NCBI GenBank assembly: GCA_964653485.1
Contig: CAZZFF010000008.1
Span: forward strand, 6,557-70,556
Origin: an uncultured Verrucomicrobiota bacterium
GTDB lineage: Bacteria; Verrucomicrobiota; Verrucomicrobiia; Limisphaerales; UBA8199
DNA: 64,000 nucleotides
Direction of reading: 5' to 3'
Of the stretch, positions 2,168 through 13,919 are shown in pieces. The notes beneath the pieces were generated by a model. The model did not search any database and was not told where the DNA came from. It was given only the letters and a program-made list of their open reading frames with translations. The translations under genes and the position numbers were made by a program. Each line of letters begins with the position of its first letter. Position 1 is the stretch's first letter.

Positions 2168-4411
2168 ATGACCGCAAAATCAAATACCAAACCGGCAGGC
2201 CCCATCGTGCTGGCGTGCGCTATCTGCGCGCTGGCCTTGCCCGCGCAGGGCGCCGGGACAGAGTCGAACCTCTGGTACGACAAGCCCGCCGCCAACTGGG
2301 AGACGCAGGCCCTGCCAATCGGCAACGGACGCCTCGGCGGCATGATCTTCGGCGGCGTCCAGCGCGAGCAAATCCAGTTCAATGAATCCAGCCTCTGGGT
2401 CGGCGACGAGACCGACACCGGGGCGTATCAGGGGTTCGGAGACCTGTTTATCGATCTCGGAGAAGGCGCCGCTCCCACCGCCTATCGGCGCGAACTCGAC
2501 CTCGCCCGGGCCGTTCACACCGTCTCCTACACCCGGGCCGGCGTGAATTACCGGCGCGAGTACTTCGCAAGCCACCCGGCCAACGTTATCGTGCTCCGCT
2601 TCACCGCGGACAAGCCGGGCGCTTACACGGGCTCCGTTCTGCTCACGGACCTGCACAAGGGCAAGGTCGAGGCTCAAACCAACCGCCTCACCTCCACCGG
2701 GTCGCTCGCCGGCTACAAGTATGAAGACAAAGGCCCGGACTATGCCTTTGCCTTGGATTACGAGGCCCAGGTCCTCGTGCTCAACGACGGCGGCTCCGTC
2801 ACGTCCTCCGATGGCCGAATCAATTTCCAAGGCGCCGACAGCCTCACCATTCTCCTCAACGCCGGCACCGATTTCGTCAACCAGCGCAGCCGCGGCTGGC
2901 GCGCCGGGCATCCGCGCGCGCGCATCGCCGCCCAACTCGATGCCGCCGCCCGCACGCCCTTCCCGGCCTTGCTCGCGGCCCATGTCGCCGACTACCAGGC
3001 GCTCTTCAATCGTGTGACGCTCCAGCTCGCCCCCTCCGCCGCCTCCCTCGAAACCGGCCGGCAGTCACCTCCCGGCGCGGAACCCCTCGCCAGCCAGTTG
3101 CCCACCGACCTGCGCCTCTTGAAATGCTCCCAGGCCGCGCGCGACCCGGCCCTCGAGGCCCTCGTCTTCCAATACGGCCGCTACATGATGATCGCCTCCT
3201 CACGCGACGCCTTGCCGGCCAATTTGCAAGGCCTGTGGAACAACTCCCTCAAACCCCCGTGGCGCTCCGATTATCACACGGACGTCAACGTCCAGATGAA
3301 CTACTGGATGGCCGACGAAGCCAATTTGGGCGAGTGCTTCATGCCCTACGCCGCGTGGCTCAACTCCATCCGTGAAGTCCGCAAAGCGGCCACCACCCAG
3401 GCCTTCAACACCCGCGGCTGGACTATGCGCGCCGAAAACGGCATCTTCGGAGGCTCAACCTGGGAATGGGTCGAATCCGGCAGCGCCTGGTGCATGCAGA
3501 ACATCTGGGACCATTACGCCTTTACCGGCGACAAAGAATACCTCCGCACCCTCGCCTACCCCATGATGAAAGAGGTCTGCGAATTCTGGCTCGACCGCCT
3601 CAAACCCCTGCCCGACGGCGCCCTCGTCGCGCCCAACGGCTACTCCCCCGAACACGGCCCGCGCGAAGACGGCGTCTCCCATGACCAACAACTCATCTGG
3701 GACCTCTTCAACAACACCGTTCAGGCCGCCGACGCCCTCGGCATCGACCGCCCGTTCCGCGACACCCTCGCCGCCAAGCGCGATAAACTCCTCGGCCCGA
3801 AGATCGGCAAATGGGGCCAGTTGCAGGAATGGATGGTGGACCGCGACGATCCCAAAGACACCCATCGCCACCTCTCCCACCTCGTCGCCGTCTATCCCGG
3901 ACGCCAGATCACCCCGTGGACAACCCCCGAGCTAGCCAGCGCCGCGCGGGTCTCCCTCAACGCCCGCGGCGACGTCAGCACCGGCTGGAGCACCGCCTGG
4001 AAGATCAACCTCTGGGCCAGACTCCTCGACGGCGATCGCGCCTACAAACTCATGGGCAACCTCCTCCGCCTCGTCGGCGACACCCGCGTCAACTACAGCG
4101 AGGGCGGCGGCCTCTATCCCAACCTCTTCGACGCCCACCCCCCCTTCCAGATCGATGGCAACTTCGGCTACACCGCCGGCGTCTGCGAAATGCTCCTCCA
4201 AAGTCACACCGGCCAAATCCAGCTCCTGCCGGCCCTGCCCAAGGCCTGGCCCGCGGGCAAAGTGACCGGCCTCCGCGCCCGCGGCGGCTTCACCGTCGAC
4301 ATCGAATGGAACGACGGCAAACTCACCCGCTACCGCATTGCCTCCCCCAGCCCTCGCGAAGTCCAGGTCCGCGTTGGCGGCGAGGTCAAGACCATCATGG
4401 CCGAACATTAA
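2168..4411 (+). CDS. Glycoside hydrolase family 95 (alpha-L-fucosidase type), secreted
   Basis: Signal peptide, then [41 protein letters not shown], the characteristic GH95 N-terminal signature. The 747-aa length fits the family. Confidence 0.85.
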
Positions 4412-4495: not shown

Positions 4496-5620
4496 TCACC
4501 CCTCGGGTGTGCCGGGGAACATCGCCTCGGTCGGGAGCGTCTGCGGGCCGTCTTCCGTGCAGAGCGCGTAGCTCGACCGCTCCTTGCCGGCGAACTCGTA
4601 AAGGGACACCACGGCGTGTTCGCCCTTGGTGTTCAGCGCGTAATAAACCACGCCAAAGTTGGGCTTGCCTCGCGCGTTGAGCAGGCGCTTCTCGACCGTG
4701 TTGGCCACCACCCGCTCCAGCGCCGCCATGCAGGCGTCCTTCGGGGACTTTCCCTGGCGCATCGCTTCGACCACCAGGAACGAACCCAGCGAAAACAGGT
4801 TCGCCTCGCCCCGCCCCGTCGAGCCGGCCGCGCCGATTTCCCCATCCACATACAGCCCCGCCCCCAGGATCGGCGAATCCCCAACCCGTCCGGGAATCTT
4901 CCATGCCAGCCCGCTCGTGGTGGTGACCCCGGCCACCTCCCCTTTGGCGTTGATCCCGTTGCAATTGATGGTGCCGTAGAAATGAGCCGGGTCGATCAAC
5001 CCCTCCGCCATCATGGCCAGCGCCGCCCGGCGCCTCCCCGCCGCGCGCTCCTTCGGCCCCGGATAATGCTCCCCGTCCGTCCGCCGCTTCCACTCCAGCC
5101 AGAGCCGGCGTGACTTTTCCGTGTTCAAGTCCCTCTCGATCTTGAACCCCATGTTCCGCGCGAACCGTTGCGCGTCTTTGCCGACCAGCAGGTGGTTGTC
5201 GGTCTCCTCCATCACCTTCACGGCCACCAACGACGGCGTGCGCACTCCCTCCAGGCACCCAACCGCCCCGGCGCGCTTCCGAGGACCATGCATCACCGAG
5301 GCATCCAGTTGGACCACCCCGTCCGCGTTGGGCAACCCCCCGTACCCCACGCTCGTGTCCTCCGGGTCCAACTCCACGATGTTCACCCCCGCGACCACCG
5401 CATCCAGCACGTCCGCGCCCGCCGTCAGCATCCGGTAAGCCTTCGCCACACACGTCAACCCCTCCGCGTCCCGCGACTTATTCCCGTTCGCCGCCGACAT
5501 TACCAGCGGCCGCGGACCCCGCCTCACCACTGCCGGAGCCTGGGCCAAAAGCGATGGACCGGCCAGCGCGCCCAAGCCGGCGGCGGCCACAAATTCACGG
5601 CGGCTAATCTGTGTGTGCAT
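4496..5620 (-). CDS. Ntn-hydrolase, glycosylasparaginase / isoaspartyl peptidase family, Tat-exported
   Basis: In-frame ATG at 5620 gives MHTQISRREFVAAAGLGALA, a twin-arginine motif. Conserved blocks: GTINCNG..GVTTTSGLAWKIPGRVGDSPILGAGLYVD. The longer ORF to 5728 has an implausible N-terminus. Confidence 0.85.
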   Translation of the reverse strand: MHTQISRREFVAAAGLGALAGPSLLAQAPAVVRRGPRPLVMSAANGNKSRDAEGLTCVAKAYRMLTAGADVLDAVVAGVNIVELDPEDTSVGYGGLPNADGVVQLDASVMHGPRKRAGAVGCLEGVRTPSLVAVKVMEETDNHLLVGKDAQRFARNMGFKIERDLNTEKSRRLWLEWKRRTDGEHYPGPKERAAGRRRAALAMMAEGLIDPAHFYGTINCNGINAKGEVAGVTTTSGLAWKIPGRVGDSPILGAGLYVDGEIGAAGSTGRGEANLFSLGSFLVVEAMRQGKSPKDACMAALERVVANTVEKRLLNARGKPNFGVVYYALNTKGEHAVVSLYEFAGKERSSYALCTEDGPQTLPTEAMFPGTPEG

Positions 5621-5776
5621 ATTAACGCCAAACTTGCACCCCCTCCGCCCCAAAGGCAAGCCCTTCGGACCCCTCACAAAACGGCGAAGCGCCGCTGCCC
5701 GGCTTCGCGCCGCAACGGAACAAGACATTCTCTTTTACTCTCTGGACCCCGGGATTGCTGATGAAAGTCGCTCTTC

Positions 5777-6601
5777 TCACAGCGGCAAGTCGCGGCGTTG
5801 CCAAACCACGCCGCCGATCACGGATGCGGCCAGGATGACCAGCACCAACACGCCCATGTTCTCCACGGGCCACCCCCGGGCCAGCTTGGGCCCGCTGGAG
5901 TAGTAGAACAAGGTCGCCGGCTTTAGGAAGCCGAGGCGGGGCCACCATTGGCTCACGATCCAGGCGAAATAGTCCAATACCAGCACGGCGACTGTGACCC
6001 CCACCGCCCGGCTGCGACCAGCGAGCACCCCGGCGGCCAACAGCGCGATGGCCCCCGCCGCCCCGGCCACCAAGCCGCCGTTCACGGCAATGCGGAAGAA
6101 GAGATCCAGCGGAACCGGCTGGCCGAAATCGTAGAGCCGGGTGGCCGCAACCGTCCCGAGGAACATCACCAGTACCAGGGCGAACATGCCCGCCATGGTC
6201 AACGTGCCGGCACAAACATAAACCTGCGTCTTTGTCGCGGGCCGGCTGAGGATCAACTCCATGGCCCCGCTCTGCACCTCCCCCGTAAGCAGCGTGGTGG
6301 GAGCGCCCACGGCAAAGAGCAAAAAGAGAAACAACACCAGGGGGTGTTGGTAGCCGATCAGAATCAGTCCAGGGACATTTCCCGCCTGCAGCATCTCGCC
6401 ACCCAGCGCCGTCTTGATGAACGGCGGCAGCACATCGAGGAACTTGAGAAAAGTCTGGACACTCGCATTGTCATGCACGATCGCGCACACCGCGATTTGC
6501 ACCAGGAAGACGACCAACCCGATGAACCCCCACATCGGCAGGAGGCGCCCGGCCCAAAAACCGAGCAGTGCGAAGGGGAAAGGAACGCGATGGGGCTTCA
6601 T
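5777..6601 (-). CDS. ABC-2 type transporter permease
   Basis: ATG at 6601 (MKPHRVPFPFALLGFWAG..) overlaps the stop of the upstream ATPase (ATGA at 6598-6601). Multiple hydrophobic segments. The ELILSRPATK block is typical of ABC-2 permeases. Confidence 0.8.
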   Translation of the reverse strand: MKPHRVPFPFALLGFWAGRLLPMWGFIGLVVFLVQIAVCAIVHDNASVQTFLKFLDVLPPFIKTALGGEMLQAGNVPGLILIGYQHPLVLFLFLLFAVGAPTTLLTGEVQSGAMELILSRPATKTQVYVCAGTLTMAGMFALVLVMFLGTVAATRLYDFGQPVPLDLFFRIAVNGGLVAGAAGAIALLAAGVLAGRSRAVGVTVAVLVLDYFAWIVSQWWPRLGFLKPATLFYYSSGPKLARGWPVENMGVLVLVILAASVIGGVVWQRRDLPL

Positions 6602-7542
6602 GAGTCTGCCCGGGAAGTCGAATCGGCTTCGACCGCCGGCCCCGCGCCCGGCCCCGCTTTGTAATACTCGATGAATGCCTCCTCGAGTGAAGTCTGGGGA
6701 GTGGCGATGCGCTCCACAGGATATTGCGCGACCCATCGGAGAACGGCCCCGCAGGCGCCTTGGTAGGCCAAGTCGAGCAGGCCGGGCCGTTGCTCGATCA
6801 CGCGGACGCCCGGCAACCGGCCAAGCGGCACCGGCGGCTCGATCGCGCCTCCCACGAACCAGACCTTCAGGCGGTGTTCGCTGCCCTGGACGATCCTCGA
6901 GACCGGCGCCATCTCGACCAGGCGTCCGGCGCGCACAATGGCAACCCGCTCGCAGACGGCCGCGACTTCGCTCAAGTCGTGCGAGGAGAGCAACACCGTG
7001 GCCCCTTCGCGGGCGGCCTCCCGTATCAGGTCCAGCACCGTCTGCCGGACTAACGGGTCGAGACCGCTGGTCGGTTCGTCGAGGATGAGCAGTTCGGGTT
7101 GCTGTTGAAAGGCGTAAACCACGGCGGCCTTCTGCCGGTTGCCCTTAGAGAGTTCACCCACAGCACGGTCCAGGTTCAGCTCCAATCGCTCGGCCAATTG
7201 ACGGCGCCGCTCCTCCGCGCCGTCGCCCGCGCCCAGCGAAGCCAGGACCCGCAAGGAGCGGCGCGCGCAAAATCCCGGCCAAAGGCGAAACTCCCCCGGC
7301 AGGTAGCCAATACGATCGTGCTGCGTTGCCCGCCCGGCCACCACCGGCTCTCCCAGGACAAGAACCTCGCCGCCCTCCGGCCGAATCAGGCCCATGATGC
7401 ACCGCAGAGTCGTGGTCTTGCCGGCGCCGTTAGGCCCCAGGTAACCGAAGATTTCACCCCGTTCGAGGGTAAAACTCACCCCTTCGATCCCGCGGACCGG
7501 ACCGTACCACTTCGTGAGGGACCGCACTTCGAGGGTTGCCAT
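6598..7542 (-). CDS. ABC transporter ATP-binding protein
   Basis: Walker A GPNGAGKTT, signature LSKGNRQK, Walker B LLILDEPTSGLD, and the H-loop SSHDL. Confidence 0.92.
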   Translation of the reverse strand: MATLEVRSLTKWYGPVRGIEGVSFTLERGEIFGYLGPNGAGKTTTLRCIMGLIRPEGGEVLVLGEPVVAGRATQHDRIGYLPGEFRLWPGFCARRSLRVLASLGAGDGAEERRRQLAERLELNLDRAVGELSKGNRQKAAVVYAFQQQPELLILDEPTSGLDPLVRQTVLDLIREAAREGATVLLSSHDLSEVAAVCERVAIVRAGRLVEMAPVSRIVQGSEHRLKVWFVGGAIEPPVPLGRLPGVRVIEQRPGLLDLAYQGACGAVLRWVAQYPVERIATPQTSLEEAFIEYYKAGPGAGPAVEADSTSRADS

Positions 7543-7667
7543 GTCTTGATATTGGCGGACTCTTGCTTTTGCCAGGTCATCCTATCCAGCGCAGCCGTCG
7601 AACACAAGCCTCGGTGCCGCGCCAGAGGCCTCCGTCCAGGAGCGGGATGACACTCTGCTCCCGCGCC

Positions 7668-8795
7668 TCACTTGTCCACGCCGGCAAACCGGTGAGTCGG
7701 AGTCGGTTTGCCCGGACGGAAGTGCTCCAGGTGGTCCAAGGTGGTGCGCAAGGTGGAGAACGTCCGGGCGGTCGCGTCAAGCGCATCCCTGACAGCGGCT
7801 CCGAGCACATCGGGAGCCGCTTCGGCCCTGAGGTTGATGATCAATTGCCCGCTTCCGACGGGCTCATCGAGGGTGAAGGCAAGCTCCGGCACGAAATCGT
7901 TGCGCACGAGGTTGACCACGCCAATCTCGCCAAGGCCGGCATCGGGGCTGAGCGTCATCTTCAAATGGGCCACCTCCGCCCCTCGAAGGCGTTTCTGGAT
8001 GTCCCGGGCCAGCTCGCTGAGGAATTTGTCGGCGTCGAAGGCCTTCTCCGCCGCAAGCTGCACCGTGCAGTTGAGCCAGCCGAGCAGGGCCTCGCCTTCG
8101 GCATAAACCTGGTAATCGACCTCCATCGCTGTCCGCGCCACCTGCTCCGAGCTGGTGATCCGGGCAAACCACCCATCCAGGTTCGCGCCATTGCGGGCGG
8201 AGACGGCGAGAATCTCCTTGCCGGGAAACCGCGCGGCGATGGCTTGCCGCAAAGAGTCCAGCCGCCCCTCATCCACCAGGTCGCTCTTGCTGATGACGGC
8301 CAGGTCGGCCTCCTCGATCTGCTTGAGATAAATGTAGAGCACCTTTCGGGAGAAGCTGCCCCCCTGCTCAAGGCCGAACACGCGCAGGCCGCGAACCGGG
8401 TCCACCAGGACGCTGACCGGCGCCACGGTGAAATTGTCGCCGTAGAGCCGCCGCAGAGGATAGGTCACCGTGGCCGCCAGGTCCGTGCAACTGCCCACCG
8501 GCTCGGCGATGAAAACATCCGGGCGGCTTCGCTCGGTCAGCTTGGCGGCGGCATCCACCAATGAATTGAACCGGCAGCAGAAGCAGCCGCCGGGAATTTC
8601 CTCCGTCGCGAATCCCTGTGCCCGGAGCATGGCGGTGTCCACCAGGTTCCGCCCCTGGTCGTTGGTGATGAGACCCACGCGCAGGCCCCGGCCGGCCAGC
8701 CGTTGCGCCAACTTGCCCAGGGCCGTGGTCTTCCCGGCGCCGAGAAAGCCGCCGATCATGATGTAGCGCGCCTTCGGCTTTGCTTCCGCACTCAT
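7668..8795 (-). CDS. G3E-family P-loop GTPase, COG0523-like (GCxCC motif) with a divergent C-terminal domain
   Basis: In-frame ATG at 8795 (MSAEAKPKARYIMIGGFLGAGKTT) overlaps the stop of the upstream gene (ATGA at 8792-8795). It has Walker A, ITNDQG, a GGCFCC metal-binding-type motif, EPVGSCTD, and SKSDL (NKxD-like). The 635-aa ORF in the track is an out-of-gene N-terminal extension. Confidence 0.8.
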   Translation of the reverse strand: MSAEAKPKARYIMIGGFLGAGKTTALGKLAQRLAGRGLRVGLITNDQGRNLVDTAMLRAQGFATEEIPGGCFCCRFNSLVDAAAKLTERSRPDVFIAEPVGSCTDLAATVTYPLRRLYGDNFTVAPVSVLVDPVRGLRVFGLEQGGSFSRKVLYIYLKQIEEADLAVISKSDLVDEGRLDSLRQAIAARFPGKEILAVSARNGANLDGWFARITSSEQVARTAMEVDYQVYAEGEALLGWLNCTVQLAAEKAFDADKFLSELARDIQKRLRGAEVAHLKMTLSPDAGLGEIGVVNLVRNDFVPELAFTLDEPVGSGQLIINLRAEAAPDVLGAAVRDALDATARTFSTLRTTLDHLEHFRPGKPTPTHRFAGVDK

Positions 8796-10780
8796 TGCGA
8801 CTCCGGTTTTCGGGTCAGAACCCAGATGTGGTTGCGAATGGCTTGCACCAGCAAGTCCGCGTCGGTCTGGTCCAGGCGGCGAAGGACTTTCTCCCACCTG
8901 TAGGCGAAGCTGCCGGCGGGGTCGTATTTGCAATGTTTGAACAGCGTGTCGAAGGCGCGACGGCGTTTGCGATAATCTTCCTGGATGTGAAGGAACCGCT
9001 CGCGAAATCCCGCGAGGTAGGCGGTCGCGAATCGGGCGCCGTTGGACAGCAGTTTGGCGCGGGTGTTCACGGGCCGGGCGTAATGTTCGGCAAAGGTGTC
9101 CAAGGGACGGGCGTATTCGCCGAAAGCGCCGCTGTGGTCGCTTACAAGCAGTTCCGCCGGCAGCCCATCCTCGCCTTCGCGGATGACCTCGTCGCCATCG
9201 TCGAACACGGGCCAGGTCCCCTCGTAGAGCGCGCGCCCCACAATGATGCTCGGCGCGGCGGCCCTGCCGAGGAGGCTGGCAAGCCTCAGGGCGTAGTCGG
9301 CCCGCACCAGTTTCTCCATGGGCACTTTGTCGCTGGCAATGCCTCCCAGGTAGTCGCGCTCGAAGTAGGTCGTACGAATGAGCTGGCCCCGATACCCTGC
9401 GGCGCGGCCCTTGTAAATCTCGCTCACGCGCCGCATGATGACGTGGGAGAGAAGGTTCATGCCCAACTGGCTGCAGCCCAGCCTTCGATCCAGCCAGTAA
9501 TCGATATAATCCTCGCTCTCCTCGATGGATTGAAGCAGTTCCTTGCCCTCGTCCAAATGCTCCCACACGCCCCACTTGAGCAGGCGCATGAACCGCTTGA
9601 CAGGCTGGTGCTCGCTCCGGGACCGCAGCTCGGCAAGGTACACCCCGCGCCGGCCCACTTTTTGCGGCCGTCCCTTCGAGAGTGATTCCGGGAGCCGGCC
9701 CAGATTGATGTACTCGATGTCTCCGTATTCCCGGATGAGGTTGAAGATGATGCCTTTGGCGCGCGGGTCCAGGAGCTTCTGGAGCGCCGGATCCTCGGGG
9801 TGGTTGGCGGCCTCGTCCAGAAGCGGGTCCAGGAGAAACTCACCCTCCTCGAAGCGGCCGCCAGGCAGCCAATCGACGTGCAGATAGAATTCGGGACTCA
9901 GCCCGCCCAGTATCTGGTCCGTTTGGGTCTCGCTGCCGTCCAGAAACAGGGTCCCTATCATCCGGTGGCACCACGCATCGTTGGTCGGATCATCGCGCCG
10001 GAAGGCCTCATGCACGGCGGAAACGAAATGTTGCTTGAGCCCCTCGTATTTCTCGCGCAATTCGCCGGCGGCGAGTTGGCGGAACGCGACCCCGGCAAAG
10101 AGGGCCGGGCCGCAATGCCGCAAATCGGCGGCGAAGAAGTCGAGTTCCGGACGGCCAAGATGGTTGCGGCGAATGGAGTAGTCGGCGATTTCCTGAAGCT
10201 GCCTGGCCAGCGCTGCGTCATCAAGTGTGCCCAGGTTCACAAATTCCTGGCACGTCAGCCAACGGGTGCCCGTGAGCCGGTTGTAGTAATAGACGGGAAG
10301 CTCCTGAATCGCCACCTTGGAACTGAAGATCAGCTTGGCTTTCTCCTCCTTGGTTGTCGGGATTGCACTGAGCCTCCAACACTCCCCCCGCCGCTTGATC
10401 GCCTCGCGCACACGCCGGTCCGAGACCGAAAGGAACACAATCCGCAGCTTGGAAACCAGCTCCTGCAACAACTCATCGCCCGCGAACGCCAAATCCATCC
10501 GCTCGGGATTCGGGCGGATGAGGATGTGGGCGTCCTCGAAGATCAGGTCCACGGAATTGCGGCAAATCCTCTCCTCCTCCTCCAGCGTAAGCGGGCCTTC
10601 CTTCCCTCCGGCGCGCCGGCTGTTGAGTGACTCTATGAAAGCCGACCGCTGCCAGGCATGGACGCCCGGCGGCAGCGTGTAAAGCGCCTTGTGGTCCAGG
10701 AAGAGAGTCCCAATCCGCGTCTTCTGCCGGCCCTGCTCGTCCCGCTCGAACGGATGGGGGCCAATGAGTTCCAAGTCCAT
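8792..10780 (-). CDS. Hypothetical 662-aa cytoplasmic protein, no domain recognised
   Basis: Long ORF with normal protein-like composition. GAGAGG lies about 6 nt upstream of the ATG at 10780, 21 nt after the stop of the upstream gene, and there is a 4-nt overlap with the downstream GTPase. No signal peptide, P-loop or other motif that I can name. Confidence 0.75.
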   Translation of the reverse strand: MDLELIGPHPFERDEQGRQKTRIGTLFLDHKALYTLPPGVHAWQRSAFIESLNSRRAGGKEGPLTLEEEERICRNSVDLIFEDAHILIRPNPERMDLAFAGDELLQELVSKLRIVFLSVSDRRVREAIKRRGECWRLSAIPTTKEEKAKLIFSSKVAIQELPVYYYNRLTGTRWLTCQEFVNLGTLDDAALARQLQEIADYSIRRNHLGRPELDFFAADLRHCGPALFAGVAFRQLAAGELREKYEGLKQHFVSAVHEAFRRDDPTNDAWCHRMIGTLFLDGSETQTDQILGGLSPEFYLHVDWLPGGRFEEGEFLLDPLLDEAANHPEDPALQKLLDPRAKGIIFNLIREYGDIEYINLGRLPESLSKGRPQKVGRRGVYLAELRSRSEHQPVKRFMRLLKWGVWEHLDEGKELLQSIEESEDYIDYWLDRRLGCSQLGMNLLSHVIMRRVSEIYKGRAAGYRGQLIRTTYFERDYLGGIASDKVPMEKLVRADYALRLASLLGRAAAPSIIVGRALYEGTWPVFDDGDEVIREGEDGLPAELLVSDHSGAFGEYARPLDTFAEHYARPVNTRAKLLSNGARFATAYLAGFRERFLHIQEDYRKRRRAFDTLFKHCKYDPAGSFAYRWEKVLRRLDQTDADLLVQAIRNHIWVLTRKPESQ

Positions 10781-10801
10781 AGTTGCCTCTCAGTTGGAAT
10801 C

Positions 10802-11512
10802 TCAAGCCGGATAGCCCACAGTCTGCGCAAACAGCACGCGCTGTCCCGGCCGAAGTTTGAGGTCCCTTGCCGCGGCGTCCTTGTTGCAGTTGTGGAACCA
10901 TGCCGCCAGCCCTTGCGAGGCGGCGAACAGATAGACGTTCCCCGCTATGAGGCCCGTGTCGGTGTAGTAGTACGACTTCTGGACCTCCGGGTTGCCTATG
11001 TTCCGGTCTGGCTGACCGGGTCCCGTGTCGTACCGGGCAAGGTCCACCACGTAGAAGATGTTCACCGGAGCGGACGCCGCCGCGCCTCGCCCGGCCCGTC
11101 CGCGCAGGTCTCCGCCCACAACCGGCGTCAACCGGTGAGGGACGGCCTCATACAAATAGACCCCCGCGGGAAGGGCCACGTAGAGGTCGATCTCCTGCGA
11201 GTTGCTGGCCGAAGCCGCGGTCCGGCCCGGCTTGCCGAATGCGCCGGTCTCCCGGTTTACCCCGAAGGCGGCCCAAAGCAAATTGGACAGGACCTGCGGA
11301 GGAAGTTCCCTCGCGCTAATGTTGCGTGTGGTCCTTCGCTCCTTGATGGCCGCCAGAACCGACTTGCCCCCGTCTGTCTCGGGTTTGGGAAGCGCGATCG
11401 GTTTCAGGTCCGGGCTGGAGACAGCCGCGTCCTGGGCCCGGGCCAGTCCGGCGGCGCCGCCGGCCAGCAAAGTCAGAGCGGGCAAGGTCTTTACGAATGT
11501 TCTCCGGTTCAT
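10802..11512 (-). CDS. Nitroreductase-family flavoprotein with Tat signal
   Basis: ATG at 11512 is preceded by GGAGGA and gives MNRRTFVKTLPALTLLAGGAAGLARA. The body (ERRTTRNISARELPPQVLSNLLWAAFGVNR..) resembles the nitroreductase / SagB-type dehydrogenase fold. Alternative ATG at 11536. Confidence 0.7.
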   Translation of the reverse strand: MNRRTFVKTLPALTLLAGGAAGLARAQDAAVSSPDLKPIALPKPETDGGKSVLAAIKERRTTRNISARELPPQVLSNLLWAAFGVNRETGAFGKPGRTAASASNSQEIDLYVALPAGVYLYEAVPHRLTPVVGGDLRGRAGRGAAASAPVNIFYVVDLARYDTGPGQPDRNIGNPEVQKSYYYTDTGLIAGNVYLFAASQGLAAWFHNCNKDAAARDLKLRPGQRVLFAQTVGYPA

Positions 11513-11651
11513 TGAATCCTCCGGTTTGGTTGGCATAGTTCTTCCCCCATACGGGTTGGTCAGCAACACTAAACCACCCTTCCTCGATTTGACCAGGAGC
11601 AAATCTGTCGAATGCCTTTGCGCCTGGCGGCGGATTGACTATGGTGCCCCC

Positions 11652-13919
11652 GTGACAACGAACCGCTTGCCCTGTTTTCTGGCCCTCTCTCTCTTGCTCC
11701 CGGCCGGCCTCGGCCGGGCCGCCGCCGCATCGGCTTGGGAGCCTGTCGGCTTGTCCGGCGGGGGCGGCATGTTCGCCCCGGCGGTTTCCGCGGCGGACCC
11801 GGACTTGATGATGATCAACTGCGACATGAGCGGCGCCTACATCTCCCAGGACGGCGGCCACACCTGGCGCATGATCAACCAGGCCCAGCTTCGCAGCGAT
11901 ACCCGCTGCCGGCCCGCCTTTCATCCGTCCAATCCCGACATCATCTACGCCTCCTCCGGCGGCCAGCTTCGACTCAGCCGCGACCGCGGCCGGACCTTCT
12001 CCCCCCTGGGCGACCTGAACGAAGCGCCGGACGGGGAAATCGCCATCAACCCCGCCGACCCCCGGTTGATGCTCACCAGCACCCGCAACGGCCGCTGCTC
12101 CCTCTCCCGCGATGCAGGCAACACGTGGTCCCCTTGCAATGGACCGGCCGGCCCCCTCATCGGGTTTCACTTCGACCGCACCGCTCCGGGCCGCGTCCTC
12201 TTCGCCGCCACCGAAAAGGGCGTCTGGCGTTCGGACGACGGCGGCCAAACCTGGGCGGACAAAACGCAGGGCCTCCCTTGGAAGGAAATCCAGGGGTTCG
12301 CCGGCGGTTCCGAGCCTTCCGGCCAACGGGTCATGCTCTATTGTTCGGTCCGCAGCCGCATCGAGGGCGGGGCCTTCAAGGGCGGTCTCTACCGTTCGCG
12401 CGACCGCGGGGAAACCTGGGAATCGGCGATGGGGCGCGGCCTCAACACTGAAACCAAGGAAGCCGACCCGTGGGCTTGCGGCCCCATCTCCCAGTACCAG
12501 CAACTCCTCGCGACGGATGCCAGGCCCCTCACGGTGTACGCCTTCAACACCAGCACCGGCTTCCATCCACCCCACAGCGATACCGTCTATCGCAGCGATG
12601 ACGGCGGCGAAAGCTGGCGGGCGGCCTACTTCATGGACCCGCGGTTCGACCGCTACAACGTGGCGCCCGACTACGTCACCGCATCCACCGGCCAGTCCTT
12701 CAAAGGGGGCGAGGCGCCGTTCGGAGTCGCGATATGCAATACCGACCCCGACCGCCTCATCCTGCTCCGCAACGAGTGCCACATCACCCACAACGGCGGC
12801 GAAACCTGGTTCGCGGGCCACACCTTCCCGGCGCCAGGGCAAAAGCCGGGACCCGGTTCCGCCTGGGCGTGCAACGGGCTCGTCGTGACCACAACCTGGC
12901 ATTACTACATTGACCCGTTCCAGACCAACCGCCATTACATCGCCTACACGGACCTCGGTTTGGCCCGCTCTCTCGACGGCGGCCTAAACTGGACCTGGTG
13001 GGACCCCAAGTCTTGGGCGCCTTGGCGAAACACCTGTTATGAAATGGCCTTCGACCCGGACATCCCCGGGAAAATCTGGGGCGCGTTCTCCGATGTCCAT
13101 GACATCCCCAATGACAATATCATCTCGGAGCGCCACGGCCATGAGCGCCCGGGCGGGGTCTGCCTTTCCCTGGACTTCGCCGCCTCGTGGAAAGCCCAGG
13201 CCCGCGGCCTGCCCCTCAAGGCCGTGACCTCCGTCGTGCTCGACCCCAAGAGCCCCCGCGATTCGCGCACCCTCTACGCGGGGGTCTTTTCCCAAGGGGT
13301 CTTCAAGACAACCGACGATGGCCGGACCTGGACCCCCAGGAACCAGGGCCTCGGCCATCCGGACAATATGCGGGTCTCCCGCGTGTTCCTCCACCGGGAC
13401 GGCACGCTCTACGCCATGGTCTGCGCCCGGCGCCCGGCGCCTCGCAAACCCCTGGCCCCGGAAGGTGTCGGACTTTATCTCTCCCGCAACGGGGGCGACA
13501 CCTGGCAGTGCCTCAACCCTCCTCACCCTTGGTTGTACCCCAAGGACTTCTCGGTCCATCCCCAGGACAGCAACCGCATCCTGGTGGGCGCCTGCGACTC
13601 GGATTGGGAAGACCGGTCCGGCGGCTTGTACAGCACCCTGGACGGCGGCAAAACCTGGCAACGCATCGGCAGGCAAGGCCCCCAAACATTCGGGGGCTAC
13701 TTTCATCCGGCACACCCGGGGTGGATTTACATGACGCTCACCGAGGGCGCTCCCGGGGCCGGTTTATGGCTCAGCCGCGACCAAGGCCAGTCGTGGCGCA
13801 GCTTCGACGAGTTGCCCTTCGCGAACATCCAGCGGGTCGAGTTCGATCCCTCCAACGACGCCACCCTCCGCCTCGCCACCTTCGGCGGCAGCATTTGGAT
13901 GGGACCGGCGACGCCTTAA
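11652..13919 (+). CDS. Secreted BNR/Asp-box repeat protein (GH74-like or sortilin-like double beta-propeller)
   Basis: About 12 Asp-box motifs (SQDGGHTW, SRDAGNTW, SDDGGQTW, SRDRGETW, SDDGGESW, SRNGGDTW, TLDGGKTW, SRDQGQSW and others). The GTG at 11652 gives the signal peptide VTTNRLPCFLALSLLLPAGLGRAAA. The track ORF start at 11202 overlaps the divergent nitroreductase gene. Confidence 0.75.
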   Translation: MTTNRLPCFLALSLLLPAGLGRAAAASAWEPVGLSGGGGMFAPAVSAADPDLMMINCDMSGAYISQDGGHTWRMINQAQLRSDTRCRPAFHPSNPDIIYASSGGQLRLSRDRGRTFSPLGDLNEAPDGEIAINPADPRLMLTSTRNGRCSLSRDAGNTWSPCNGPAGPLIGFHFDRTAPGRVLFAATEKGVWRSDDGGQTWADKTQGLPWKEIQGFAGGSEPSGQRVMLYCSVRSRIEGGAFKGGLYRSRDRGETWESAMGRGLNTETKEADPWACGPISQYQQLLATDARPLTVYAFNTSTGFHPPHSDTVYRSDDGGESWRAAYFMDPRFDRYNVAPDYVTASTGQSFKGGEAPFGVAICNTDPDRLILLRNECHITHNGGETWFAGHTFPAPGQKPGPGSAWACNGLVVTTTWHYYIDPFQTNRHYIAYTDLGLARSLDGGLNWTWWDPKSWAPWRNTCYEMAFDPDIPGKIWGAFSDVHDIPNDNIISERHGHERPGGVCLSLDFAASWKAQARGLPLKAVTSVVLDPKSPRDSRTLYAGVFSQGVFKTTDDGRTWTPRNQGLGHPDNMRVSRVFLHRDGTLYAMVCARRPAPRKPLAPEGVGLYLSRNGGDTWQCLNPPHPWLYPKDFSVHPQDSNRILVGACDSDWEDRSGGLYSTLDGGKTWQRIGRQGPQTFGGYFHPAHPGWIYMTLTEGAPGAGLWLSRDQGQSWRSFDELPFANIQRVEFDPSNDATLRLATFGGSIWMGPATP

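Follow-up and report, generated by a model that had tools for sequence, protein, structure and literature searches.

The overlap of a COG0523-like GTPase gene with a predicted kinase-fold gene in an uncultured Verrucomicrobiota bacterium probably marks a recent rearrangement

Operons that pair a metallochaperone with its client enzyme are known, among them UreG with urease, HypB with hydrogenase and Nha3 with nitrile hydratase. COG0523 G3E GTPases such as YjiA, ZigA, CobW and YeiR share a P-loop (GxxGxGKT), a GCxCC motif, an ExxG motif and an (S/N)KxD motif. Kinase-fold proteins include the Kdo kinases and the SelO-type AMPylating pseudokinases, in the latter of which key residues are substituted. 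AceK is a cytoplasmic protein of ~600 aa in which an N-terminal non-kinase domain precedes a C-terminal atypical protein-kinase-like (PKL) domain, with catalytic residues that we take to be D457, N462, D475 and D477 (E. coli numbering). Here we analyze a 64-kb stretch of DNA from an uncultured Verrucomicrobiota bacterium (contig CAZZFF010000008.1; hereafter the window, meaning the full stretch), in which a gene for a 662-aa protein (10780–8792, minus strand; labelled X662) overlaps by 4 nt the gene of a COG0523-like GTPase. An earlier note on this DNA had proposed that these two genes encode a dedicated chaperone-client pair, in one operon with a nitroreductase gene and possibly an ABC-2 exporter. 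We arrived at another reading, to which we assign a probability of about 0.7: the nitroreductase, X662, GTPase and ABC transporter genes are unrelated and came to lie side by side recently, in this lineage only; they do not form a functional module, and the notable one among them is X662, a protein of PKL fold.

The comparison rested on two sets of loci, one made up of X662 genes and their 6-kb flanks, taken from 80 species-representative genomes (910 kb in total), and the other comprising 87 loci around GTPase relatives at 63–89% identity. When the window GTPase was used as a tblastn query, it matched none of the 80 X662 loci, either at E ≤ 1e-5 or at E ≤ 0.05, and E. coli YjiA, taken as a generic second COG0523 query, likewise found none at E ≤ 0.05. 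In the reciprocal direction, X662 was encoded in 0 of the 87 GTPase loci. The nitroreductase was found near X662 in one locus of the 80, at a distance of 3.7 kb, and in none of the 87 loci of the GTPase relatives. A homologue of the ABC ATPase occurred in a single GTPase locus, and the ABC transporter was kept beside neither X662 (80 loci) nor the GTPase (87 loci), so that the exporter suggested as part of the same unit does not belong there by this measure. Clustering of all open reading frames (ORFs) in the X662 loci placed every neighbor family in at most 5 of the 80. By Pfam, one subclade had kdsB, pyrG and folC as neighbors; in other subclades these were LysR/purF or a radical SAM gene. 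The kdsB (CMP-Kdo synthetase), pyrG and folC genes adjoin X662 divergently in this subclade of Verrucomicrobiae, in ~5 of the 80 loci (for example L184:4090–7028 and L185:3662–6971). The nitroreductase gene was directly adjacent to X662 only in the closest relative, at 89% identity. Non-conservation of the trio as neighbors had been named beforehand as an outcome that would count against the chaperone-client inference, and because the trio is not conserved, we consider that inference refuted.

The closest relatives indicate how the overlap arose. In three loci with an 89%-identical X662 (L169–171), the nitroreductase gene is retained 17 nt upstream of X662, a DNA methyltransferase gene lies 365 nt after it, and no GTPase gene follows. 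The closest GTPase relatives (87–89% identity) sit in other surroundings: after an unrelated cellulase-like gene, which they overlap by the same 4-nt ATGA (L172–175), beside a WXG100 gene (L176–178), or after a 276-aa gene (L187–190). Locus L187 carries both ends of the story: the 3' end of an X662 gene (88% amino acid identity) and, 6.1 kb away on that strand, a GTPase gene (89%). By blastn, the window and L187 are homologous across X662 as far as 10 nt beyond its stop codon; the match breaks there, restarts 17 nt into the window GTPase ORF and ends at the GTPase stop. Exactly between these two breakpoints, L187 (865–7001) contains a block encoding a HisKA sensor kinase, a PhdYeFM/ParE toxin-antitoxin pair, a 675-aa protein and the 276-aa protein. 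In L187 and L169, the counterpart of the window ATG and of codons 1–6 of the GTPase (MSAEAK) is the 3' flank of X662, and at the aligned junction GTPase homology starts at ...AAGGCGCGCTACATCATGATC. Because homology breaks at this point and the first codons come from the X662 flank, we interpret the 4-nt overlap as the product of a deletion or rearrangement, with the junction at 8778–8795 on the minus strand (the ATGA and the first six GTPase codons). In such an event, the 3' flank of X662 would have been joined to a GTPase gene at about its codon 7; in related genomes, this gene moves independently. The direction of the change, with the overlap derived in the window lineage, is what the sequence comparison suggests. 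The identical junction was present in a second sample of the same species (L186). In L169, the asparaginase-family gene that in the window lies in the 4496–7542 interval is found on the other side of X662 and in the opposite orientation (2285–3406); this displacement and inversion indicates that the region is rearrangement-prone and has been repeatedly reshuffled among close relatives.

The overlap itself (ATGA at 8795–8792, at once X662 stop and GTPase start) carries little weight. A 4-nt overlap between same-strand bacterial genes is no more than chance would give, and the ATGA is not evidence alone, since a true pair (the ABC ATPase and permease genes, joined at 6601–6598) and a fortuitous one (the cellulase-like gene and the GTPase gene) both show it. 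The start of the GTPase may also lie elsewhere: its first 12 residues are not conserved, and several homologues were called from an invariant Met13 (ATG at 8759); if translation started there, a 32-nt gap would therefore take the place of the overlap. A scan of 5600–11900 for promoters and terminators was uninformative, with no promoter-like site and with no more terminator-like sites than expected from shuffled sequence; none of these separates the genes. Co-transcription in this organism is plausible because no such site lies between the genes, and from the sequence they are probably transcribed together.

The chaperone-client proposal holds that the GTPase is a GTP-dependent metallochaperone that loads metal into X662 as its client, with translational coupling for stoichiometry and with the nitroreductase and ABC exporter in the same pathway. 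It can draw on the same-strand overlap with no terminator-like site between the genes, on a CxCC motif that is intact and invariant in the GTPase, on residues of X662 that could bind metal (H41, its invariant His, and acidic residues that are invariant or nearly so), and on the proximity of the genes in L187 together with the shared junction in L186. Against this stand the complete lack of co-occurrence in the 80 and 87 loci, the 89%-identical X662 genes with no GTPase downstream, and the position of the overlap on a rearrangement junction with six GTPase codons taken from the X662 flank. The GTPase also overlaps an unrelated gene in the same way in L172–175 and has other recurrent partners (described below), and X662 has no conserved Cys, while its sole invariant His is far in sequence from the acidic cluster. 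Taken together, we consider a dedicated pair extremely improbable.

The GTPase (375 aa; 7668–8795, minus strand) is itself of the class to which it had been assigned. Its G-domain (~residues 1–195; 8795–8211) matched the Pfam cobW model over residues 12–190 (E = 3.2e-23), and hhalign against E. coli YjiA, its best PDB sequence match, gave a probability of 97.5% over the G-domain only, with GCFCC opposite GCICC. It carries GGFLGAGKTT (Walker A, 8753–8724), AEPVG (ExxG) and SKSD ((N/S/T)KxD), the motifs of a G3E G-domain, and GGCFCC at 8574–8591, containing the CxCC metal-binding signature of COG0523-type GTPases; GCFCC was invariant in 22 homologues. Among NCBIfam models, the CobW-type ones scored highest (CobW-related selenoprotein, 67.8 bits against a cut-off of 180; CobW, 47.6; ZigA, 44.3 against 600), ahead of HypB (34.9) and MeaB (19.9), with UreG not listed. 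All equivalog scores were far below their cut-offs, and this comparison is a ranking of hidden Markov model scores and not a phylogeny. The C-terminal domain (~residues 196–375; 8210–7668) is another matter. As the earlier note had noticed, this half does not look like CobW_C: neither the CobW_C model (PF07683) nor any other Pfam model matched it, also when the domain was searched alone, and since hhalign with the C-terminal domain of YjiA gave a probability of 0.1%, we rejected a diverged CobW_C at the sequence level. In the family alignment these ~180 aa are extremely conserved and end in an invariant HLEHFRPGKPxPTHR. The family has more than 8,000 matches, with a mean column identity of 80%.

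Two recurrent contexts of this GTPase were seen in the 87 loci. In 27 of them it is followed by a translationally coupled MIP/aquaporin channel gene, and in 10 of these an ArsR-type regulator gene comes first. In ~21 loci the gene order is cysteine desulfurase, GcvH-like protein, the GTPase, a small Cys-rich protein (140 aa, no Pfam match), a 4Fe-4S ferredoxin-domain protein, radical SAM enzyme and then polyprenyl synthase or an SHC-like protein. The 64-kb window encodes none of the partners from either context. In the library that we searched, no COG0523-MIP pairing was described. The protein thus resembles the COG0523 GTPases in its motifs and differs from them in its own C-terminal domain and in its recurrent MIP/ArsR or GcvH-like/Cys-rich/ferredoxin partners. 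From its sequence, it is a divergent COG0523-type metal-binding GTPase with a non-CobW_C tail, whose partner, if any, is not X662. We regard the family, as an uncharacterized COG0523 branch with a new C-terminal domain, as a second lead from this locus.

X662 had been described as an orphan that could not be assigned to any named family. The second half of that description stands: neither Pfam nor NCBIfam models matched it, none of 26 diverse members matched Pfam, and neither phmmer nor the family profile found a match among PDB sequences. The first half does not, as X662 belongs to a large and strongly conserved family. A word-indexed search returned over 1,091 clusters at the 90% identity level, with the 120th match still 66% identical, and HMMER, run exhaustively over 1.84 billion representatives, gave 491 clusters at 50% identity. 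Full-length members are all ~650 aa and of a single architecture, down to ~25% identity. The genomes of at least 246 species encode a member, and these species belong almost without exception to Verrucomicrobiota, Planctomycetota, Lentisphaerota or Kiritimatiellota; every named member is annotated "hypothetical protein". X662 is cytoplasmic and usually monocistronic, and the family is mainly restricted to the Planctomycetes-Verrucomicrobia-Chlamydiae (PVC) group. A phage or viral origin was considered and set aside, as no relative was found in 50,697 phage records (tblastn) or in an IMG/VR scan. No description of the family was found in the literature library that we searched.

Structure prediction was more informative than sequence search. 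An AlphaFold2 model built from an alignment of 98 family sequences reaching down to 25% identity, the set on which the residue counts below also rest, had a pLDDT of 90.5 and a pTM of 0.83. A model from 30 close relatives (66–89% identity) reached only 62.8 and 0.34 and was discarded; the quality of the model thus reflects the diversity of the alignment. Foldseek searches with the confident model, a check that the earlier note had called for, returned almost only kinases, at modest scores (E ~1e-3 to 1e-5). All 50 PDB matches listed were kinases, Vps34 first (E = 8.8e-4, probability 0.99), with EphA2, the JH2 domain of JAK2, PI3Kgamma, PI3KC2alpha, PI4KIIIbeta, Rio1, PINK1, PKR and eukaryotic protein kinases (ePKs) further down. 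In BFVD, ~43 of the best 50 matches were annotated as kinases, mostly Ser/Thr kinases of giant viruses; the remainder were unnamed or uncharacterized proteins and two weak non-kinase rows near the bottom. The best BFVD match, A0A6J5SGR0, is an uncharacterized protein of 973 aa from a Caudovirales phage that is itself uncultured (E = 1.2e-5, ~610 aligned columns); it scored above any solved kinase, though X662 has no sequence relatives in the phage records or IMG/VR.

The model suggests an N-terminal alpha/beta region (residues 1 to ~300; 9881–10780), delimited by conservation and predicted secondary structure, and a C-terminal PKL domain (residues ~300–662; 8792–9880). In the latter, the kinase elements would be beta1–3 at 355–400, a long alphaC at 415–438, beta4–5 at 447–476 and alphaE at 494–513. 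A second line of evidence came from profile comparison. When the 98-sequence X662 profile was aligned by hhalign with E. coli AceK, it scored 39.3 (P = 3.8e-4, probability 36%) over X662 416–536 and AceK 366–483, from alphaC through the hinge to FDDGDE opposite FYDYDE; the probability was 17% with a 26-sequence profile and 38.5% when a four-sequence AceK profile was aligned with X662. The AceK profile is shallow, with four usable sequences, all from Gammaproteobacteria (E. coli, Klebsiella, Proteus and Aeromonas). The other 26 E. coli proteins compared, the PKLs UbiB and SrkA included, scored 12–23 (P = 0.04–0.7); UbiB and SrkA, tried as candidate relatives, gave no signal above this null. AceK was therefore the sole match above the null among 27 E. 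coli proteins, and the AceK-like kinase core that had been offered as a speculation from a few by-eye motifs fared better than expected. Because the AceK alignment is a sequence signal that does not depend on the fold match, yet falls on the same catalytic core, the PKL assignment is well supported, and we hold it very probable that the C-terminal half of X662 adopts this fold. The AceK (IDHK) kinase core is its closest detectable relative by sequence.

Residues of the candidate active site rank among the best conserved in X662. Three residues (H41, N359 and E531) are invariant in all 98 sequences, and R136, G529, R432, R475, R516, R399, D527 and D530 are present in at least 90% of them. The putative catalytic segment, delimited by the AceK alignment, is G515-R516 ... 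F526-D527-x-G529-D530-E531 (9188–9238, minus strand), with R516 in 96 sequences (K in 2), D527 in 92, G529 in 97 and D530 in 90. F526-D527-x-G529, after a short hairpin that follows alphaE, takes the place of the DFG motif (PKA D184) and is followed by D530 and E531. In the alignment, G515-R516 stands where AceK has G-D457 and ePKs have HRD, AceK N462 faces a non-conserved position, and D475/D477 face D528/D530, or D527/G529 after a one-residue shift. Counterparts of the catalytic-loop Asp and Asn (PKA D166 and N171) were not found among the 98 sequences: R516 occupies the Asp place, and 517–525, a variable region with indels, holds no conserved Asn. N359-x-G361 maps to the predicted beta1-beta2 loop. 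There is no invariant Lys either; the strand at 394–400 carries R399 (R in 93, K in 3), followed by K402 (K in 84, R in 10), and in the model R399, with K402, would sit on beta3 at the place of kinase K72. In the N-terminal region, H41, R89, D102, R136, G171, R173, E197, N206 and E212 are near-invariant.

Nearly all key PKL residues are replaced in some active family, K72-to-R included, and in CAK-type PKLs this change is found with function retained (Kannan et al., PMC1821047). X662 may be built along such lines. It would bind a Mg-nucleotide through the DFG-like D527-x-G529 and the D530/E531 pair, R399 would replace the beta3 lysine by analogy with choline-kinase-type PKLs, and the N-terminal domain could supply substrate or effector recognition, as in AceK. 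PKLs with non-canonical centers of the choline-kinase/FadE type share with X662 substituted key residues and strong conservation of the nucleotide site; this likening, like that to the SelO type, is by residue pattern. Because the catalytic-loop Asp is replaced by a near-invariant R516 and the Asn is missing, the most likely role of X662 is that of an atypical enzyme of phosphotransfer or nucleotidyl transfer, or of an ATPase, and not that of a canonical Ser/Thr kinase; its arginine cluster suggests that the substrate is anionic (phosphorylated). That it founds an undescribed PVC-specific family of kinase-fold enzymes, with Arg for both the catalytic Asp and the beta3 Lys, a retained metal-binding D-x-G-D-E and a non-canonical reaction on a conserved housekeeping target, is a more specific proposal that we consider doubtful for now.

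Several points weigh against our reading of the locus and of X662. The two genes lie ~6 kb apart or closer in two sister lineages, that of the window and that of L187, so there may be a loose functional link between X662 and the GTPase in a small clade, and co-transcription may couple their regulation in the window lineage alone. The AceK alignment reached just 36–38% probability with a shallow AceK profile, and AceK was not among the 50 PDB matches listed by Foldseek. The Foldseek scores are globally weak (TM 0.15–0.38, high root-mean-square deviation, E ~1e-3 in the PDB), a low global TM being expected of a 662-aa query with two domains. The mapping of motifs to kinase subdomains in the model is uncertain, as it follows from the order of secondary structures and one profile alignment; so is the DFG assignment, made by position and the AceK alignment, with the register around FDDGDE good to ±1 residue. 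Lastly, the 98 sequences contain no strongly conserved alphaC Glu, catalytic Asp or catalytic Asn, and a pseudokinase role is possible for this reason.

X662 could accordingly be a dead pseudokinase, serving as a nucleotide- or ligand-binding scaffold or an allosteric regulator. Besides the lost Asp and Asn, with R516 at the Asp place, this would explain the lack of an invariant Lys and the 56% conservation of E421, the candidate alphaC Glu. The constancy of N359 and E531 (98/98), G529, R516 and D527 fits a relic less well than a working center, catalytic or ligand-binding, and PKL families are able to replace almost any key residue and remain active (PMC1821047). We regard the pseudokinase reading as unlikely. 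A second possibility turns on the best structural matches, Vps34, PI3Kgamma, PI3KC2alpha and PI4KIIIbeta: X662 might be a kinase of small molecules (lipid, sugar or inositol phosphate), of the PI3K/PI4K or Kdo-kinase kind. Like X662, the PI3K/PI4K lipid kinases have a bilobal kinase domain after a large accessory domain, and the top match, Drosophila Vps34 (PDB 2x6f), spans ~620 aligned columns. The near-invariant R399, R432, R475, R516 and R635 would suit a small anionic substrate, and in one subclade X662 stands divergently beside kdsB and pyrG. The identity to the lipid kinases is, however, 10% and the TM 0.27–0.31, with no sequence-level similarity; the PI3K-type catalytic loop (GDRHxxN) is absent from X662, Foldseek scores do not separate lipid from protein kinases, and the kdsB adjacency is limited to its few loci. 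We consider this option distinctly unlikely.

The remaining alternative makes X662 a functional analogue or an orthologue of AceK: acting as both kinase and phosphatase, it would switch a central metabolic enzyme, isocitrate dehydrogenase for instance, by phosphorylation. AceK was singled out from 27 E. coli proteins by an alignment that extends from alphaC to the DFG region, with similarity at alphaC, the hinge (YFER ~ YIER), alphaE (LLGxAAAxN ~ IRQLAAAN) and FDDGDE ~ FYDYDE. The two proteins are of similar size, both cytoplasmic, with ~300 N-terminal residues ahead of the kinase domain, and the X662 gene is stand-alone and strongly conserved. On the other side, the Pfam AceK kinase and regulatory models matched neither X662 nor 25 diverse relatives at E ≤ 1, and the structural matches listed did not include AceK. 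X662 has Arg at the Asp457 position, no Asn462 and Arg for the beta3 Lys, and the N-terminal domains could not be aligned. Neither aceA, aceB nor icd recurred beside X662 in the 80 loci, and X662 is found in PVC bacteria whereas the AceK sequences compared were all gammaproteobacterial. A shared function with AceK is highly unlikely in our view; that AceK (IDHK) is the nearest known family is plausible, though we lean slightly to the negative.

The gene calls themselves agreed with the sequence in all the particulars previously reported, namely the spacer with its GAGAGG, the ATGA overlap, the Walker A and GGCFCC motifs and the gap before the ABC genes. On the minus strand between 4.5 and 11.6 kb, the order is nitroreductase, X662, GTPase, ABC ATPase, ABC-2 permease and an Asparaginase_2 family gene (Pfam PF01112). 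The nitroreductase-family flavoprotein gene (236 aa; 10802–11512, stop codon TGA at 10804–10802) is separated from X662 by 21 nt (10781–10801), with the Shine-Dalgarno-like GAGAGG at 10791–10786, 5 nt before the ATG at 10780. The nitroreductase fold was confirmed by Pfam PF00881 (E = 1.4e-14) and by PDB matches to 8cqs, 3hoi and 3hj9 (E = 3e-25 to 1e-23; 8cqs at 3e-25 over residues 33–234), and its proposed Tat export agrees with an N-terminus that, read by eye, is Tat-signal-like (NRRTFVK, a hydrophobic stretch and ARA-Q). Translation from another in-frame start, the ATG at 11536 that follows GGGGGAAG, would yield a protein of 244 aa with MPTKPEDS ahead of the twin-arginine motif; the homologues in L169–171 were called at 236 or 244 aa. 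After the GTPase gene, 125 nt precede the ATG of the ABC ATPase at 7542. The ABC-2 type transporter (5777–7542, minus strand) consists of the ATPase (7542–6598; ABC_tran, E = 6e-27) and the permease (6601–5777; ABC2_membrane_2, E = 2.6e-8), and the Asparaginase_2 gene lies downstream of it on the same strand.

The high G+C content of the region gives rise to many long antisense or shadow ORFs on both strands between 4400 and 14300, up to 635 aa, for example 7668–9575 (from a GTG start) and 11316–12935; a naive caller that takes the longest ORF chose the one antisense to X662 in 15 of the 80 related loci. On the plus strand, divergent from the nitroreductase gene, a long ORF (~11700–13919) carries ~12 Asp-box/BNR-like repeats (DGGxTW, DRGxTW, DDGGxSW), which, read by eye, suggests a beta-propeller glycosidase or a sortilin-like protein. 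The start listed for it, 11202, falls within the nitroreductase gene and probably lies too far upstream.

For genome mining, the locus is a caution, as a 4-nt overlap with a metallochaperone-type GTPase gene is here the scar of a recent rearrangement. X662 itself is a large piece of dark proteome, invisible to sequence-based annotation, in phyla that are abundant in soils, peat and fresh water. The model offers a testable hypothesis, nucleotide binding with R516, D527 and E531 as the residues to probe, for a family with no functional lead. The family would take its place beside AceK among the atypical kinase-like proteins known from bacteria. Under the more specific and doubtful proposal given above, the reaction would be nucleotidyl transfer, an AceK-like phosphatase/ATPase cycling or the phosphorylation of an anionic metabolite, and X662 would represent a PVC-specific regulatory switch unseen by current annotation pipelines.

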